DNA from: Chloroflexota bacterium
GTDB taxonomy: Bacteria; Chloroflexota; UBA11872; VXOZ01
Length of the DNA: 64,000 nt
Reading direction: 5' to 3'
Assembly: GCA_965220045.1 (NCBI GenBank)
Contig: OZ244803.1
Coordinates: 2,711,901-2,775,900 of the forward strand
Numbering within the stretch: position 1 is the first letter of the stretch; each line of letters opens with the position of its first letter. The notes beneath the pieces are model-generated. The model saw nothing but the letters and a program-made list of their open reading frames with translations, was not told the origin of the DNA and did not search any database. Made by a program: the position numbers and the translations under genes. Positions 158-64,000 of the stretch are shown here, in pieces.

Positions 158-187
158 GTCATTCCCGCGAAAGCGGGAATCCATCTT
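158..187 (+). repeat. Family-A hairpin repeat (gtcattcccgcGAAAgcgggaatccatctt); left terminal inverted repeat of the GIY-YIG unit
   Basis: Perfect 8 bp stem attcccgc/gcgggaat with GAAA loop, read directly. It overlaps the stop codon of the GIY-YIG gene by 2 nt. The same 30-mer recurs about 20 times in the window. Confidence 0.9.
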
Positions 188-473
188 AAATGACTTCGTC
201 GTACACGTCCGCCCACTGTGGATTAGTCTTCTCGATCAACTCAATCTTCCACGCCCGGTTCCACTTCTTCAGCGCCTTCTCCCTCCTGATGGCGCTCTCC
301 ATAGTCTCATGTGCCTCGTACCAAACTAGCCTGTGGACACCGTATTCCTTTGTAAATCCCTCCACAAGGCCATTCTTGTGTTGCCAGACCCTCTGAGCGA
401 GGTTCGAGGTCACGCCGATGTAGAGGGTGCCTTTGGGGTTATTTGCAAGTATGTAGACACATGGTGTTTTCAT
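186..473 (-). CDS. GIY-YIG nuclease family protein (small UPF0213/YhbQ-like). The ORF track extends it to 521, but the likely start is the Met at 471-473 (MKTPCVYIL...)
   Basis: Motifs CVYIL...GTLYIGVTSNLAQRVWQHKNG...REKALKKW are the canonical GIY-YIG signature (GIY = VYI, YIG = YIG, conserved R and E). The frameshifted paralog at 1873-2159 is homologous only from this Met onward. Confidence 0.85.
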   Translation of the reverse strand: MKTPCVYILANNPKGTLYIGVTSNLAQRVWQHKNGLVEGFTKEYGVHRLVWYEAHETMESAIRREKALKKWNRAWKIELIEKTNPQWADVYDEVI

Positions 474-599
474 TACGGTGGTCTCTTCAAGTGTGCTTCC
501 GCTAGTTCTTAACGTTGACATGTGACAATGGGGTTGCCAGTACTTCGCTTATCGGCGAATCACTCCTTTTTGTTGAGGGCCAGCGCCCCACCCAGAGAC

Positions 600-629
600 A
601 AGATGGATTCCCGCTTTCGCGGGAATGAC
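600..629 (-). repeat. Family-A hairpin, inverted orientation; right terminal inverted repeat of the GIY-YIG unit
   Basis: aagatggattcccgctttcgcgggaatgac is the exact reverse complement of the 158-187 repeat. It lies 126 bp beyond the GIY-YIG start codon. Confidence 0.9.
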
Positions 630-2550: not shown

Positions 2551-3942
2551 CTAGAGTTGGTCCGCCCACTTATTGAGGACCTCTTGCACACGCTCGGCGT
2601 GCTCCTTGTTGGCCTCTTCGGGCGTGATCTCCTTGGCGTAGGCCCTGAACCAAATATCGATGTTGATGCCGATGATCTCATCGTTACCGGGGATAACCGG
2701 CACCCACTTGGCGAGCTCCAATTCTGCCAGGTACGCCTCAGCCTCAGGCACCTGCTCCAGGTAACCGCCGAATGAAGCTGATTGCAGCGCGGGAATGTAG
2801 TCACCGGCGCCAATTGACCAGCGCAGGTTGACGTCCCCACCCAGGAAGAACTCGATGAGGGAGAAGCCGCCATCGGCATTAGCAGCGCCCTGGGGCTGTG
2901 CCAGTGCCCAGCCACCCTGGTAGTTGGTTGCTATGCCATCCGGCGGCAGCGGCATGGGCGCCGACTTGAAGTTGATTGCCGATTCCCACGCCTTGCGATA
3001 CGTGGCGGCATACCAGTGACCGCCGATCATCTGCGAGACGCCACCGGTGGTGAAGGCATCGTTGCGGTCGGGCCGCTGCTGGCCCAGGAATTCATCGATC
3101 CGCACGTTGCCGCCGCACAGGTCGACCATGTTGATCATGAACTTGAGCGCGGTTACGCCCATGTCATTGTCAAAGTTGACCGTCTTGTTGTCGGGCGAGA
3201 GATATTCGCCGCCCTGCTGCCAGAAGTGGATGTACCACTGCAAGCCGACCGGCGGATTGCCTGGAGGGCCGGTGGAGTAGCCGAGCCGCTCGATCACGCC
3301 GTCTTGTCCCGCTTTGTGGAGCTTCAGCGTCGCCGATTCCAGCTCGTCCCAAGTGGCGGGCGGACTTTCCGGATCGATGCCCGCTTCTATGAAGTGGTCT
3401 ACGTTAAACATGTACGTGCGGGCGTCAGTATGCAGTCCAACACCGTAGATGTTGCCCTTCCACGTGCAGTCATCCCGCAGCTTGGGCCAGATGTCGTCCC
3501 AGCTAAACGCCGCCGTCGCCTTGATGTGTTCGTTCAGGTTCAAGAGGAACCCCGGTGCGGAAAGCTGGCCCGCCAAATAGCGGTCCATGTAGAAGACGTC
3601 CGGCGGAGCGCCGGCCGCTGCCGCGGTAATGAGCTTCTCTTTGCTGCCGCTGCCGATATGCGTCGGCGTGAGCGCCAGGTCGACGTCGGGATTCGCTTCC
3701 TGGAACTCGAGCAGAAGATCGTTGCCAATGTGGCCTTCCAACAAGAAGTCCTGGTACGTCCAGAACTTGACTTCGGAGGGGCCCATCATCTCTTCGGACT
3801 TCGCTTCGCCCATGTCATCATCGGCCGGAGCATCGTCCGCCGGGGCCATGGCGCCTCCCGTGGCGCAGGCGGCAAACAGGGCCGCGCCGCTAAACGCGCC
3901 CGCCGTGCCGATAAGCATTCTGCGTGTCAATCTTGCTTCCAT
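2551..3942 (-). CDS. ABC transporter substrate-binding lipoprotein, family 1 (carbohydrate)
   Basis: Lipobox ...LFAACATGG, then an Ala/Pro/Asp-rich linker, then a body typical of extracellular solute-binding protein family 1. About 60% identical to the SBP at 9817-11196. Confidence 0.85.
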   Translation of the reverse strand: MEARLTRRMLIGTAGAFSGAALFAACATGGAMAPADDAPADDDMGEAKSEEMMGPSEVKFWTYQDFLLEGHIGNDLLLEFQEANPDVDLALTPTHIGSGSKEKLITAAAAGAPPDVFYMDRYLAGQLSAPGFLLNLNEHIKATAAFSWDDIWPKLRDDCTWKGNIYGVGLHTDARTYMFNVDHFIEAGIDPESPPATWDELESATLKLHKAGQDGVIERLGYSTGPPGNPPVGLQWYIHFWQQGGEYLSPDNKTVNFDNDMGVTALKFMINMVDLCGGNVRIDEFLGQQRPDRNDAFTTGGVSQMIGGHWYAATYRKAWESAINFKSAPMPLPPDGIATNYQGGWALAQPQGAANADGGFSLIEFFLGGDVNLRWSIGAGDYIPALQSASFGGYLEQVPEAEAYLAELELAKWVPVIPGNDEIIGINIDIWFRAYAKEITPEEANKEHAERVQEVLNKWADQL

Positions 3943-33344: not shown

Positions 33345-33639
33345 CTCCGGATACAGGCTGGATCCCTCGGTTTCCCAACCGCGCGTTCGCTGGAATGACT
33401 GCCACGACGTTAGCCGACATCTTCATTCCCTTGTGCGGCCTGGGCAAGGCCAAGGTGATTTCTGTTTTCGCGGAAATCTATCTTCACGCCTTGCCAATGG
33501 ACGCCGCGGCGGGTGGTCTTGCGCAGTCATGACTTTGGTACTCCGGTTTCAACCGCTCTCTTTGTCGCGCCTTGGAGCAAAGCGACAGAAAAGTGCCTAC
33601 ACACGCTTTAGATTCCGCGAATCCTGTTCGACGCCACGC

Positions 33640-34160
33640 TCGGAATTGTAGATGTTGACTAATTCGTTGACAGAATCTCCTGTCCACTAGAAAGCGCTGG
33701 GAGTCCATGTCATTCCGAGCGCAGCGAGGAATCTAGGGTCCGAGTTGCTCGGAGTTGGATTGGCTATAGACTCTAGATTCCTCACTTCGCTACGCTCCGT
33801 TCGGAATGACATCCTATTGGGTCTTAATTGCAGGCAAAACCACCGATTGTCACCAATTCAGTTGACGAATTACCTGACATTTACAATTCCGAGCGCAGCG
33901 TCGAACAAGGTTCGCGGAATCTAGTGCCATGCTCTAGGCAGTCATTAGCCCCAGCACACGAGATTCCTCACTCCGCTGCGCTCCGTTCGGAATGACATAC
34001 CATTAGGTCTTACTCGCAGGCAGAACCACCGCTTGTTGTCACCAATTCTGTCAACGAATTACCTGACATCTACAGGAATGACATGTGTTGTGGACGTATG
34101 CAAGCGAGACCCACCGCTCATTTTCCCATTTCTGTCAACGAAACTCTCAATACTTACAGG
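33640..34160. mobile_element. Cluster of solo IS481-family terminal-repeat ends and family-F hairpins (MITE-like derivatives)
   Basis: At least four copies of the IS end motif ctgtcaacgaattacctgacatttaca / tgtagatgttgactaattcgttgacag, each abutting a hairpin half (gtcattccgagcgcagcgaggaatc). A roughly 110 bp segment is repeated at 33770-33875 and 33965-34075. Confidence 0.7.
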
Positions 34161-39019: not shown

Positions 39020-39068
39020 AAGATGGATTCCCCGCCCCCGCGCGGGGGCGAGCTTTCGCGGGAATGAC
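39020..39068 (-). repeat. Family-A hairpin with nested GC-rich palindrome insert
   Basis: Reverse complement reads gtcattcccgcgaaagctcgcccccgcgcgggggcggggaatccatctt. Confidence 0.85.
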
Positions 39069-41117: not shown

Positions 41118-41166
41118 GTCATTCCCGCGCACGCTCGCCCCCGCAGGGGGGCGCGGAATCCATCTT
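41118..41166 (+). repeat. Family-A hairpin with nested GC-rich palindrome insert
   Basis: gtcattcccgcgcacgctcgcccccgcaggggggcgcggaatccatctt. Confidence 0.85.
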
Positions 41167-55298: not shown

Positions 55299-55359
55299 CG
55301 CGCAGCGGGGCTGAGGAAGAAATCGGGCAAGAGACCCTAGGTAGTGTTGACATTTCGCC

Positions 55360-55389
55360 GTCATTCCCGCGCAAGCGGGAATCCATCTT
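55360..55389 (+). repeat. Family-A hairpin (GCAA loop)
   Basis: gtcattcccgcgcaagcgggaatccatctt. Confidence 0.85.
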
Positions 55390-55539
55390 CACGCTGCGCA
55401 GATTGTCCTGCTGCGAGGGGGAGCGAGTGACCGTGCGCGCAAGGATTGTCTTTGTCACAGGCCTTTTCTCCCACGCTGCGGAGCAAAACAACCGTGAATC
55501 CCGCACAAACACTTGAGATTCCTCGCTTTCGCTCGGAAT

Positions 55540-56599
55540 TGTAAGTGTCAGGTAATTCGTTGACAGATCTGGTAGAACATTGATGAGTGTCAATCACCAG
55601 ATCTGGAGGCAACTGATGCGGGATAATAGTAGTGACAAGACCATTGAACGGAACCTCATGCAGAAGTGGCGTTTCCTCATCGCCGAGTACGAACGGGTCA
55701 AGGCCAAGCAGCATCCCCAGTTCCGCTTCCTGCAGGACTTCTATGCGTTCCATGGTACCAGTCGCCAGACCTTCGCCAAGTACTACAACCGTTTCTGTCA
55801 GACGCGCAGCGATGACGCCCTGCTGCCGCGCAAGCGCGGTCCCAAGTGGAAGAGCCGCCGCACCTTGCCCTACATCGAGCAGAAGGTGCTGGAGCAGCGC
55901 CGCAAGGGTATCAACCGCTATGAGATCTGTGCCATACTCAAACCGGTACTCAAAGCGCACACACCCTCACCCTCCACCATCTACGCCATTAGCAAGCGCC
56001 ATGGGCTCAACCGCCTGAAACCGGCCATGAAACAAGCCAAGCGCACCATCATCAAGACCCGCGCGGGCGAACTGGGGCATCTGGACTGCCATTACCTCAG
56101 CCGCGACCTGCTCCTGGACAGCTCCCAGCGCTACTACCTGGTCTCCGTGCTCGATGCCTGCACCCGTCTGGCCTGGGCTGAAGTGGTGCCTGACCTCAAG
56201 AGCCTCAGCGTCATGTTCGCCGCGCTCAAGAGCATCAACCTGCTCAACGTTGAGTACGGCATCCAGTTCGAAGCCATCCTCACCGATAACGGTCCTGAGG
56301 TGGCGGCACGCACGAAACCGGCGCAGCATCCCTTCGAGCGCATGCTGCTGGAGCTCGGCATCAAACACCGCTACACCCGGCCCTACCGACCCCAGACCAA
56401 CGGCAAGATCGAACGCTTCTGGCGGACCCTGAACGACGACCTGATCGAAGGCACGACGTTCGAGAACCTGACGGAGTTCCAAAACGAACTGATGCAATAC
56501 CTCCTGTACTACAACACGGAAAGACCACACCAAGGCCTGAAGGGGAATACGCCTCTTCAAGCTCTGCAAAATCTGTCAACGAATTAGTCAACATTTACA
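55540..56599 (+). mobile_element. IS481-family insertion sequence, complete. 29 bp imperfect terminal inverted repeats and a 5 bp target duplication GGAAT, inserted into a family-F hairpin
   Basis: Left IR tgtaagtgtcaggtaattcgttgacagat, right IR (reverse complement) tgtaaatgttgactaattcgttgacagat. Flanks ...cggaat|IS|ggaatgac reconstitute the hairpin gtcattccgagcgaaagcgaggaatc. Confidence 0.85.
55580..56587 (+). CDS. IS481-family DDE transposase (rve integrase core)
   Basis: N-terminal HTH region, then ...HLDCHYL...YYLVSVLDACTRLAWAEVV......TDNGPE... and RPYRPQTNGKIERFWRTLNDDL...YYNTERPHQGL, characteristic of IS481/rve. Confidence 0.85.
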   Translation: MMSVNHQIWRQLMRDNSSDKTIERNLMQKWRFLIAEYERVKAKQHPQFRFLQDFYAFHGTSRQTFAKYYNRFCQTRSDDALLPRKRGPKWKSRRTLPYIEQKVLEQRRKGINRYEICAILKPVLKAHTPSPSTIYAISKRHGLNRLKPAMKQAKRTIIKTRAGELGHLDCHYLSRDLLLDSSQRYYLVSVLDACTRLAWAEVVPDLKSLSVMFAALKSINLLNVEYGIQFEAILTDNGPEVAARTKPAQHPFERMLLELGIKHRYTRPYRPQTNGKIERFWRTLNDDLIEGTTFENLTEFQNELMQYLLYYNTERPHQGLKGNTPLQALQNLSTN

Positions 56600-56727
56600 G
56601 GAATGACATCAAATGTCAACAGAGCCTAGACACTGCTCAACAGCCGGCATCCCTTTGGAGTGAACAACACCCGCCGTGTGGCGGGTGTTTGCGGTTCTCC
56701 GCTTTCGATGGCCCGGCGCCTACTTGC

Positions 56728-57795
56728 TCAGTGCCTCAGTGACCTGATGATTGGCCCTGCCGCTAGCAACTCGGCAAGATGTCCCGCCCGGTCCACACGC
56801 CCGAAGTAGTTACAGGGAATCACTTCAAACGGTCCCAAGCGGCGCATTACTTCATCGAGCAGCAGGTTTTGGCCGATGTTGTCGGTGGCGTAGTGGGGCA
56901 GGCGCACCAGAGCGATTCCGTGCTCCTGGCAAGCGGCCACGCTTGCCGCCCCCGCCGAAACTTGAACCACAGTATTCACTCCCGCCTGCGCCAGCAGAGG
57001 AAAAGCGGTCGGTGGGTAGGCATAGCCGCCGGCGAACTTGGCATGAATGCGGCCGACGGGCTGCGCCGCGTCGCCCACCATTATGCGGGGTACCGCGCCG
57101 ATTTGCGCGGCTTCTTGCATTTCAGGAATCGTTAGCATGAGCTCAACCACGTCGCCTACCGTCCGCGGCCGCTCCCGGGCAAAGAGTGCATTCAGGTATT
57201 GGCGGTGCGCCAAATCTACCGGCGTGTGGATGCAGGCCAATGGATACCCGAGCAGCTTAGCCGTATCGGGCCCAATGCGGTGCACATCCTCATGCTCGCG
57301 CAGACGCTGGGCCATAAAGTCGAAAATGCACGCGCGGGCCTCATCTGCCGGCACCCCTTCCCACACGAGATAGTCCGCGTTTATCTCCATGAAGTCCGCG
57401 ACGAGCGAGGCGGAGATGCCGACGCTGTTGGTGTGATGTGAGATAAAGGCATCAATCTTTGTACCTTTGGCAGCAAGCTGCGCGCCAAGCAGCAACTCTT
57501 GCACGTGCAGGTTGATGCCGACCAACGCGGTGCGGATGGGCGTATTGTCCGGCCCGTTGGATATCCGCACGTCACCGTAAGGATTGCGAAAGCGTTCCTT
57601 GTCGTAAATCTCCTGCTGCCAGGCGGGCAACGCGGCATACTCGTCGCTCCGCTGCTGCAACTGGCGCTCTATGGTCGCCTGGCCGCGCGGGTCCAACTCC
57701 CGGCCAATTGCGATGGAGGTCTCATACATTTCGCGCAAAGTCACGACACTATTCCTATGCTTCCGTACATGCGCTGCGATACTTCCAGTCGTCAC
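56728..57795 (-). CDS. NIF3/DUF34-like dinuclear-metal-center protein (tentative), paralog 1
   Basis: ...VGINLHVQELLLGAQLAAKGTKIDAFISHHTNS... and C-terminal ...LPHYATDNIGQNLL... mirror the YbgI-type HH and GHxATE motifs. Confidence 0.45.
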   Translation of the reverse strand: MTTGSIAAHVRKHRNSVVTLREMYETSIAIGRELDPRGQATIERQLQQRSDEYAALPAWQQEIYDKERFRNPYGDVRISNGPDNTPIRTALVGINLHVQELLLGAQLAAKGTKIDAFISHHTNSVGISASLVADFMEINADYLVWEGVPADEARACIFDFMAQRLREHEDVHRIGPDTAKLLGYPLACIHTPVDLAHRQYLNALFARERPRTVGDVVELMLTIPEMQEAAQIGAVPRIMVGDAAQPVGRIHAKFAGGYAYPPTAFPLLAQAGVNTVVQVSAGAASVAACQEHGIALVRLPHYATDNIGQNLLLDEVMRRLGPFEVIPCNYFGRVDRAGHLAELLAAGPIIRSLRH

Positions 57796-63641: not shown

Positions 63642-63924
63642 GGCATCGAACAGCCCAGCGGTCTTCTACTCGGGCGGGCGTTGCAGGGCATCTTCAACGC
63701 GCCGCAGAGAAGCTTGGGTCGCGTGCAATTCATCCAGTAGTTGATCCCTCGTCGCGGGGGATCCCAGCGTGCGCTGGGGTTCTCGCTTCACTTCGTCCAT
63801 GGTGCTTACCACAACGGCTATAGACAGATTTGCCCCGATGGACGTTACGGCAATTGTATGTGTTGAGTAATTCGTTGACAGAATCTCCCGTCCACTTGAC
63901 CGTGCTGAAAGGTCACGTCATTCC

Positions 63925-64000
63925 TGTAAGTGTCAGGTAATTCGTTGACAGATCTGGTAGAACATTGATGAGTGTCAATCATCAGATCTGGAGGCAACTG
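63925..64000 (+). mobile_element. Second copy of the IS481-family element, truncated by the window edge. Again inserted directly after gtcattcc of a hairpin
   Basis: tgtaagtgtcaggtaattcgttgacagatctggtagaacattgatgagtgtcaatcaTcagatctggaggcaactg is identical (1 mismatch) to 55540-55615. A solo IS end lies just upstream at 63856-63890. Confidence 0.85.

Follow-up and report, generated by a model that had tools for sequence, protein, structure and literature searches.

A divergent IS481-like insertion sequence of Chloroflexota that probably integrates at one fixed position of CGTC/TGTC-tagged REP hairpins

An insertion sequence (IS) that lies at the very base of a small DNA hairpin raises the question whether it arrived there by coincidence, given the abundance of such hairpins, or whether its transposase selects this position, and by which property of the target. 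The question is posed here by a stretch of 64,000 nucleotides from a Chloroflexota bacterium (assembly GCA_965220045.1, contig OZ244803.1, positions 2,711,901 to 2,775,900 of the forward strand; in the following "the window"), in which a complete IS of 1,060 bp on the plus strand (55540..56599) adjoins a repetitive extragenic palindrome (REP). For the answer, flank tables were established from relatives in other genomes and metagenomes together with the window copy. We consider it probable (about 0.85) that the element represents an active IS of a divergent IS481-like clade, the transposase of which steers insertion to a single position in REP hairpins with a CGTC or TGTC tag.

The ends of the element, its inverted repeats (IRs) and its target-site duplication were all read in the sequence and agree with what an earlier inspection of the letters (the sequence-only reading) had described. 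The left IR (IRL, TGTAAGTGTCAGGTAATTCGTTGACAGAT, 55540..55568, plus strand) and the right IR (IRR, 56571..56599, minus strand; reverse complement TGTAAATGTTGACTAATTCGTTGACAGAT) are 29 bp long and imperfect, with 24 of 29 positions matching, and their core TAATTCGTTGACAG is kept in all relatives examined. They are bordered by the duplication GGAAT, the left copy of which (55535..55539) recurs as a direct repeat on the right (56600..56604). Between the IRs a single long open reading frame (ORF) without programmed frameshift encodes a DDE transposase of 323 aa (55616..56587, plus strand), the stop codon of which (56585-56587) is enclosed by IRR. The whole element is located between convergent genes.

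Two types of REP have to be distinguished in order to describe the target. The commonest one, here called A-type, is a high-copy extragenic sequence reading (C)CGTC-ATTCCCGC-GAAA-GCGGGAAT-CCA-TCTT, in which the CGTC tag remains unpaired, a stem of 8 bp opens with AT and is closed by a 4-nt loop, and CCA forms the tail. The same tag, stem, loop and tail define the CGTC-1 family of tagged REPs, which includes Rickettsia RPE-6 and Neisseria dRS3, the latter being equated with the neisserial CGTC-1 elements (Di Nocera et al. 2013, PMC3733652). All CGTC-1 features were found in the A-type copies, 12 of which, with a CG-initiated stem, are among the 23 occurrences of the word GTCATTCC in 64 kb; judged by these features, the window hairpins are members of the published CGTC-tagged family. 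The B-type, (A/C)TGTC-ATTCCGAGCG(A/C)AGCGAGGAAT-CTA, is the form used by the IS. It resembles CGTC-1 in its tag and in the AT start of the stem, but differs in the TGTC form of the tag, in an imperfect stem with G.A mismatches, in its CTA tail and in its host, which is here a member of the Chloroflexota. The predicted hairpin energy of the B-type amounts to -2 to -3.7 kcal/mol, compared with -9.0 kcal/mol for the A-type.

When the flanks of the window copy are joined without the IS and one GGAAT, the sequence gattcctcgctttcgctcGGAATgac is obtained, which reads GTCATTCCGAGCGAAAGCGAGGAATC on the minus strand and hence GTC|ATTCC|GAGCGAAAGCGAGGAATC, with the IS between the GTC tag and the first base of the stem. 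Joining the flanks restores a hairpin sequence, just as the sequence-only reading had written it. Its description of a hairpin split by the IS has to be corrected, since the stem-loop at 55518-55539 stays whole to the left of the element; the tag is parted from the stem and five stem bases are duplicated. The body of this B-type REP (55517..55539, minus strand) matches the stem-loop ATTCCGAGCGAAAGCGAGGAAT plus a C exactly and has a predicted DNA hairpin energy of -3.7 kcal/mol, and its GTC tag lies at 56605..56607 (minus strand), beyond the element. An A-type CGTC REP at a distance of 150 bp (55360..55388, plus strand) is unoccupied. A second copy of the IS (63925..64000, plus strand) ends at the window edge, matches the first copy at 75 of 76 positions and starts straight after GTCATTCC (63917-63924). 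The bond used is the same and the orientation with respect to its REP is reversed, which bears out the earlier statement that both copies occupy the same hairpin position. Within the window the IR core was counted eight times, against 0.98 expected, and since GTCATTCC takes up 23 positions in 64 kb, chance would place five junctions at this word with a probability of about 6e-18.

Alleles of this very site were found within one sample. Homologues of the neighbouring gene (338 aa) with 97-98% identity are encoded on two more contigs of sample ERZ24894577. One of them (L169) carries the same convergent gene pair with a spacer of 364 bp and no IS, and thereby represents the empty site. If the IS and one GGAAT are removed from the window, both sequences align without gaps and are identical at 355 of 365 positions, with the L169 junction reading ...gattcctcgctttcgctcGGAATgacatc...; the REP in L169 is intact and contains a single GGAAT, so it was present before the insertion, and the unoccupied A-type REP nearby is identical in this strain. 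On the other contig (L168) the same bond is filled in reverse, with IRL instead of IRR beside the tag, by an IS with 98% identity to the window copy (703 of 715 positions). The site is thus polymorphic within one community, occurring in empty, forward and reverse form, which shows that the element is currently active and that the site is a genuine hot spot.

When representative genomes were scanned with the transposase, 46 loci (L001-L046) were obtained, and both element ends could be located in 41 copies including the one in the window. Eleven copies derived from a single Chloroflexota metagenome-assembled genome (MAG; 93% amino acid identity) and approximately 20 from a MAG of the Dehalococcoidia (73%). 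Other Dehalococcoidia MAGs contributed further loci, and MAGs of the Nitrospirales, Nitrospinota and Gammaproteobacteria one copy each (62-70%); a MAG of the Deltaproteobacteria showed a partial transposase match (66%). For a relative with 45% identity (L045), element ends were looked for and none were found. The Nitrospirales, Nitrospinota and Gammaproteobacteria copies, for which both ends were located, have kept the IR core and adjoin a GTC-tagged site; the distribution suggests that the IS has spread horizontally between phyla with CGTC-type REPs in common.

A perfect 5-bp duplication was present in 33 of the 41 complete copies, spread over several Chloroflexota and Dehalococcoidia MAGs and single MAGs of the Nitrospirales and Gammaproteobacteria, and each of these 33 is directly preceded by GTC on the 5' side. 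The site GTC|ATTCC was used in 30 of them, and a tagged hairpin is restored in 28 of these 30, i.e., in 28 of the 41 complete copies. Orientation relative to the hairpin was 19 versus 14 among the 33. The target varies with the REP of the host, as can be seen in the Nitrospirales MAG, where it reads GTC|ATCCC|CAACCTGATCAGGGATCC. In the copies that lack a duplication (L003, L005, L017, L036, L042, L010 and L011), half-sites can still be recognised on one side or on both; these copies would be products of recombination between copies. In contig OZ240215, GTCATTCC words, occupied and unoccupied ones together, occur at about 4e-4 per position, and the probability that at least 16 of 17 copies lie at such a word is about 1e-53, which excludes chance.

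Metagenome contigs were additionally scanned with the exact IR 17-mer TAATTCGTTGACAGAAT. About half of the matches had no IR-like tip and were dropped as chance hits; the 54 matches with such a tip derived from GC-rich as well as AT-rich organisms. Together with the genome loci and the window, these matches gave 150 non-redundant ends, 77 of which are preceded by GTC and five further nucleotides (ATTCC in 53 cases, ATCCC in 11, ATTGC in three, and rarer variants), and 52 by the complementary GGAAT, GGGAT or AGGAT, which mark the hairpin side. The junction is therefore present in about 129 of the 150 ends. On the tag side the consensus reads (C/A)(T/c)GTCAT(T/c)CC; of the 77 ends of the GTC class, 75 have A in the first position after GTC and 74 have T in the second. 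The recurrence of the same junction in about 129 of 150 ends identifies it as a trait of the whole clade, beyond this genome. Unrelated flanks at further copies would have spoken for coincidence; the tabulation revealed the GTC junction instead, and together with the empty and inverted alleles it upholds the fixed insertion position that had been claimed from the window.

Some flanks deviate from this pattern. Inverted instead of direct flanks (GTCATNCC | element | GGNATGAC) were seen in IS and MITE copies of L034, L036, L076, L098, L112 and L144, and the reciprocal type GGAAT | element | ATTCC in L005 and at 33647-33885 of the window. Deletion or inversion between copies in head-to-head REP dimers would fit both types of flank. 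In two IS copies of OZ242329.1, L010 (1912-1926 / 2988-3000) and L011 (1915-1926 / 2988-3002), homopolymer runs of about C7 and G7 lie between the IS tip and the GTCATTCC or GGAATGAC half-site; such runs may be artefacts of long-read sequencing, belong to a palindromic target GTCATTCC-Cn/Gn-GGAATGAC or have arisen by recombination. A palindromic target of the type GTC-N5-GAC was considered and rejected, as L012 alone is fully palindromic and the REP targets have just GA on the second side.

The assignment to an IS481-like clade relies on the transposase and on the architecture of the element. The protein matches the Pfam domains rve_3, rve and rve_2, and its best NCBIfam model is that of the IS481 family (NF033577; 202 bits against a curated cut-off of 224, E = 1e-59, 261 of 284 model positions), with IS3 as runner-up (79 bits). 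By motif, the DDE triad was assigned to D157 (HLDCH), D224 (LTDNG) and E266 (KIERF). The nearest annotated proteins in a plasmid collection were IS481-family transposases with 30-32% identity (tblastn). A length of about 1 kb, a single ORF, terminal IRs beginning with TGT and a 5-bp duplication are features of the IS481 type and were found here as well as in 33 relatives. More than 3,000 homologues were detected in metagenomes at E <= 1e-30. No IS name was found among these homologues, which are labelled as "integrase core domain-containing protein" or "InsO family". The ATG at 55616 is likely the start codon, because GGAGG lies upstream at a distance of six bases, the 323-aa version is present in public gene calls and the homologues align from there. 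The recorded starts are 55616 for the transposase and 57744 for the neighbouring gene, and exact-protein look-ups of the longest-ORF versions (55583 for the transposase; GTG at 57795 for the neighbouring gene) gave no record. The exact transposase is on public record solely at the locus of the window. Public contigs encoding this transposase often have a length of 1,047-1,070 bp and consist of the IS alone; the contig of L168 likewise stops within the IS.

How the transposase finds its target can be approached from the cuts. The staggered cuts flank the first five stem bases, 5'-(C/A)(T/C)GTC^ATTCC^GA-3', so that after insertion the tag and ATTCC lie on one side and the whole stem-loop on the other, in both orientations. 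The chemistry of transposition would, by analogy, be that of the IS3/IS481 DDE group. The transposase may read the DNA sequence of the target, i.e., the invariant GTC, the near-invariant AT, CC and then GA, rather than an extruded hairpin, and occupancy would then track the 12-mer CTGTCATTCCGA with or without a second arm. We regard such a direct readout as reasonably likely for three reasons. Five insertions at sites without a visible second arm keep the GTC (L012, GTC|CTTCT|GAC; L002, GTC|ATAAT|TCC; L041, GTC|ATGCG|GGA; L032; L020), the weak B-type hairpin is favoured while the stable and more abundant A-type is under-used, and GTC, AT and CC remain constant while stems, loops and tails differ. 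In addition, 25 of 29 occupied sites continue with GA after the duplication, compared with 18 of 50 unoccupied ones (P = 1.6e-5). The IRs and the target have TGTCA in common: the tip region of the IRs reads TGTCAGG, their inner box, on the opposite strand, CTGTCAA, and the target CTGTCAT. This is a weak lead that one DNA-binding domain may serve both; however, the IR variants of distant members (CTATCA in L034 and L041) do not follow their targets, and this counts against a mimicry of IR and target.

Several observations weigh against the proposed interpretation in whole or in part. The IS481 model score of 202 bits remains below the NCBI cut-off, and annotated IS481 transposases are only about 30-32% identical. 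L019, L023 and L030 have common flanks, so some loci may represent duplicated segments and not independent events. Sequence and structure are confounded, nearly all GTCATTCC words being REPs, and the GA preference may partly stem from local hopping among B-type REPs carried by miniature elements of the IS (see below). Moreover, sites bearing a hairpin are mildly enriched among the occupied ones (28 of 30, versus 38 of 50 unoccupied; P = 0.07), which leaves room for a structural contribution.

This enrichment leads to the most serious competing explanation, according to which the transposase or transpososome recognises an extruded hairpin, a cruciform or a hairpin that forms in single-stranded DNA at the replication fork and cuts at the base of the stem, while GTCAT would be a mere passenger of REP conservation. 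Besides the enrichment, it can draw on the second arm in 28 of the 30 GTC|ATTCC targets and on distant hosts, where the targets are hairpins of other sequence (L035 and several of the surveyed ends). Still, a readout of structure would predict that sites without a second arm are avoided, and five insertions at GTC-N5 sites contradict this; it leaves the preference for the thermodynamically weak B-type over the stable A-type as unexpected as the invariant GTC and nearly invariant AT next to variable stems, loops and tails. DDE enzymes of this group, such as those of IS3 and retroviral integrases, also integrate into double-stranded targets. On balance we judge structural recognition to be unlikely. 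Less likely by a clear distance is a tethering of the element by a host protein or a protein of the REP system, e.g., a small GIY-YIG protein that binds or nicks the boundary of tag and stem, a site which the IS would exploit. The insertion bond does coincide with this boundary, and GIY-YIG genes lie between inverted, outward-tagged REPs in the window (186-629) and beside occupied REPs in L006 and L018. An action of GIY-YIG proteins on REPs is, however, hypothetical, a GIY-YIG gene is nearby at only 3 of 167 loci, the insertions at GTC-N5 sites outside REPs favour direct recognition, and in IS1397 and ISKpn1 the REP specificity is set by the transposase itself (as cited in PMC1525189).

Two further explanations are highly improbable. 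Near-random insertion, with persistence only of those copies that came to lie in harmless intergenic REP clusters, would suit the intergenic nature of the REPs and the place of the window copy between convergent genes. Selection is nevertheless unable to confine insertions to a single bond with an invariant GTC and a duplication of always 5 bp, and the two independent orientations at one bond in co-occurring strains would remain unexplained. Alternatively, the hairpin halves might belong to the element, which would then have longer true ends, or the hairpins might be the partner that moves and seeks out IS ends; a miniature element in the window is indeed flanked by an extended inverted repeat of 68 nt that includes REP sequence. 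Against this stand the empty site with its intact REP and single GGAAT, and the flanks, which are direct in 33 copies, flip with the orientation of the IS and differ at non-REP sites (CTTCT, ATAAT, ATGCG).

The IS is accompanied by miniature inverted-repeat transposable elements (MITEs). A complete MITE of 239 bp (33647..33885, plus strand) is composed of IR, spacer, REP, loop, inverted REP, spacer and IR, and is flanked by GGAAT and ATTCC without a direct duplication. It is followed by a second MITE without left module (33886..34074, plus strand), which starts at the ATTCC of the first internal REP, aligns to MITE columns 82-277 and has an IRR abutting GGAATGAC, and by a remnant of the right module of an older MITE (34075..34159, plus strand), recognised in a repeat listing and by alignment to the MITE family as GGAATGAC, spacer and a degenerate IRR. 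On the left, a long B-type REP body (33609..33646, minus strand) abuts the IRL of the first MITE, ends with GGAAT and is part of the 68-nt extended inverted repeat. GGAAT at 33642-33646 and at 34075-34079 brackets an insert of 428 bp. A further left module (IR, spacer, GTCATTCC; 63855..63924, plus strand) aligns to the MITE family up to GTCATTCC; IS copy 2 has inserted into the internal REP of this module.

The sequence-only reading had noted at least four solo IS ends at 33640-34160, fused to hairpin halves as MITE-like elements with a 110-bp internal tandem repeat. Three ends do lie at the canonical junction (33646|33647, 33885|33886 and 34074|34075), while the fourth (34133-34159) is degenerate and has the non-canonical flank GGATCGAATGA. 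MITEs are indeed present, yet the ends belong to two-ended elements of about 240 bp and are not solo, and the contacts between IRs and hairpin halves are insertion junctions and not part of the MITE architecture. Copies of the approximately 110-bp repeat are spaced 186-189 bp apart, so that the repeat is not strictly tandem.

With strict IR-to-IR pairing, 20 pairs of 147-581 bp were obtained, one of them in the window. Six of the 20 have a perfect duplication and four more are off by one base. About 12 pairs belong to a family of two-REP MITEs of 237-268 bp; these homologues in metagenome contigs include five with perfect duplications of the canonical site and two that are off by one base, and all but one contain two internal GTCATTCC words. 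Both parental IRs, multiple copies, the same duplication and a lack of coding capacity characterise them as MITEs, the window copy having hybrid flanks. B-type REPs occur as MITE cargo in 25 of 27 cases in MITE-bearing metagenome contigs and in three of four cases in the window, whereas 14 of 16 B-type REPs at the Dehalococcoidia loci stand alone. The MITE consequently carries its preferred target but is not the sole source of it. As deletion derivatives of about 240 bp that use the same target and bring along two REPs of the preferred subtype, the MITEs seed new targets and nest into one another, and a nested insertion with recombination between copies fits the block at 33609-34159.

Two observations concern the REPs as such. 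Three A-type REPs (1826-1872; 39026-39068, minus strand; 41118-41164) hold a second GC-rich palindrome, CTCGCCCCCGC-N3/4-GGGGGCG, in the loop; this nesting of a hairpin within a hairpin suggests a second small mobile palindrome aimed at REP loops. Upstream of the GTC tag, some REPs share a conserved motif of approximately 20 nt, CTAGGYNNTGTTGACATTT, which contains TTGACA (window 55335-55359 and, on the minus strand, 56608-56632; flank of the L065 MITE) and may belong to a more extended repeat or have a promoter-like character.

An interplay of the IS with the hairpins and with GIY-YIG genes had also been proposed. The window encodes an intact GIY-YIG protein of 95 aa (189-473, minus strand; Pfam PF01541, E = 2e-17) between inverted A-type REPs with outward tags (158-629), as well as two decayed copies (866-986; 1826-2335). 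In L006 and L018 the REP that carries the IS lies directly downstream of a GIY-YIG gene with 47-51% identity, and the gene in L006 is flanked by inverted B-type REPs. The arrangement of GIY-YIG gene and REPs recurs with homologues of 45-51% identity (L006:1527-1926; L018:1624-1936; L128:1920-2257), and its layout is similar to that of the REP-associated tyrosine transposase (RAYT) genes, which are flanked by REPs. CGTC REPs have been noted as lacking a dedicated transposase (Di Nocera et al., PMC3733652), and a literature search for a link between GIY-YIG proteins and REPs found none. The only part of the proposal that holds is the use of these REPs as landing pads, as in L006 and L018. The GIY-YIG/REP unit may be more novel than the targeting by the IS, yet it is a separate finding. 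It is doubtful, though conceivable, that the IS with its MITEs and the REP system are coupled, the MITEs spreading TGTC B-type REPs by the DDE transposase in trans and the insertion bond marking the functional boundary of a unit of GIY-YIG gene and flanking REPs. If this were true, part of the CGTC REP super-family would gain a DDE transposase acting in trans, and the transposase may recognise the very tag that is read by the enzyme of the REP itself, perhaps via the TGTCA common to the tag and the IRs of the IS.

REPs have been known as landing pads of ISs since the 1990s, so the principle is not new. The novelty lies in the transposase family, in the REP super-family used, which has CGTC or TGTC tags, and in the insertion at the tag/stem boundary, where the 5-bp stagger covers the first bases of the stem; the conservation of the clade across phyla and a MITE carrying its own target appear to be unreported. 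A broad IS481-like clade, so far without a name and represented by thousands of metagenome homologues, would thereby join the REP-recognising families IS3, IS110, IS4, IS5 and IS256, with its IR core and target bond conserved across phyla. Natural empty, filled and inverted alleles in one sample, combined with a single-protein DDE enzyme of about 10 bp specificity, make the system tractable for studying the evolution of integrase-like site specificity. The element also accounts for breaks between contigs, and for collapsed contigs about 1,060 bp long, in short-read metagenome assemblies of these bacteria, and target-carrying MITEs form a self-reinforcing loop that leads to nested repeat clusters such as 33609-34159.

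Comparison with known systems places the element in the functional class of REP-targeting ISs, as the large majority of its copies lies in REPs, at a constant position and in REPs that existed beforehand. REP-specific insertion has been described for members of IS3 (IS1397, ISKpn1, ISPsy8), IS110 (IS621, ISPa11, ISPpu9, ISPpu10, ISRm19) and IS4 (ISRm22), and a preference for REP-containing extragenic spaces for IS256 (ISRm5) and IS5 (ISNm1106); neisserial REPs are also preferred by IS1106 and Piv-like (IS110-family) transposases, and the specificity of IS1397 and ISKpn1 is determined by the transposase (Tobes & Pareja 2006, PMC1525189). The IS481 family is not among the REP-targeting families of PMC1525189, and a later report of REP targeting by IS481 elements was not found in the searchable library. 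The sequence-only reading had called such a target unusual for a DDE element and hairpin targeting normally a province of HUH enzymes. The former is overstated, REP targeting being already documented for DDE families by IS1397, ISKpn1, ISPsy8 and ISRm22, and the latter is incorrect in view of the REP-specific IS3, IS110 and IS4 elements (PMC1525189).

Among the IS110 elements, IS621, ISPpu9, ISPpu10 and ISPa11 likewise use one fixed REP position with essentially all copies in REPs (PMC1525189, PMC12288879). Their enzyme is unrelated, being a DEDD recombinase for which a bridge RNA serves as guide (PMC11208160), and IS110 elements mostly lack terminal IRs (PMC1525189), whereas the IS described here is bounded by IRs, makes a 5-bp duplication and inserts in both orientations. 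With IS200/IS605 and the RAYT/REPIN systems (HUH Y1 transposases), the common ground is a small hairpin with a conserved unpaired tag beside the stem. The present element has no Y1/HUH domain, and its IRs and duplication are not made by single-strand HUH transposition; with its DDE enzyme it is thus not of the IS200/IS605 type, and the earlier comparison with HUH enzymes extends to the shape of the target only.

Closer relationships exist to IS3, the family most closely related to IS481. IS1397, ISKpn1 and ISPsy8 share with the present IS a DDE enzyme with rve core, the location of nearly all copies in REP hairpins and a short duplication. They differ in the two ORFs joined by a frameshift that are typical of IS3 members, compared with one ORF here, and in their use of GTAG-type REPs of enterobacteria and pseudomonads, compared with CGTC/TGTC REPs cut at the tag/stem boundary; IS1397 is reported by Bachellier, Clement and Wilde to insert in the loop region of the REP. 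IS481 of Bordetella resembles the element in its size of about 1 kb, its single DDE ORF, its TGT-initiated IRs and its short duplication, which comprises the 6-bp NCTAGN in IS481 and 5 bp in the IS of the window.

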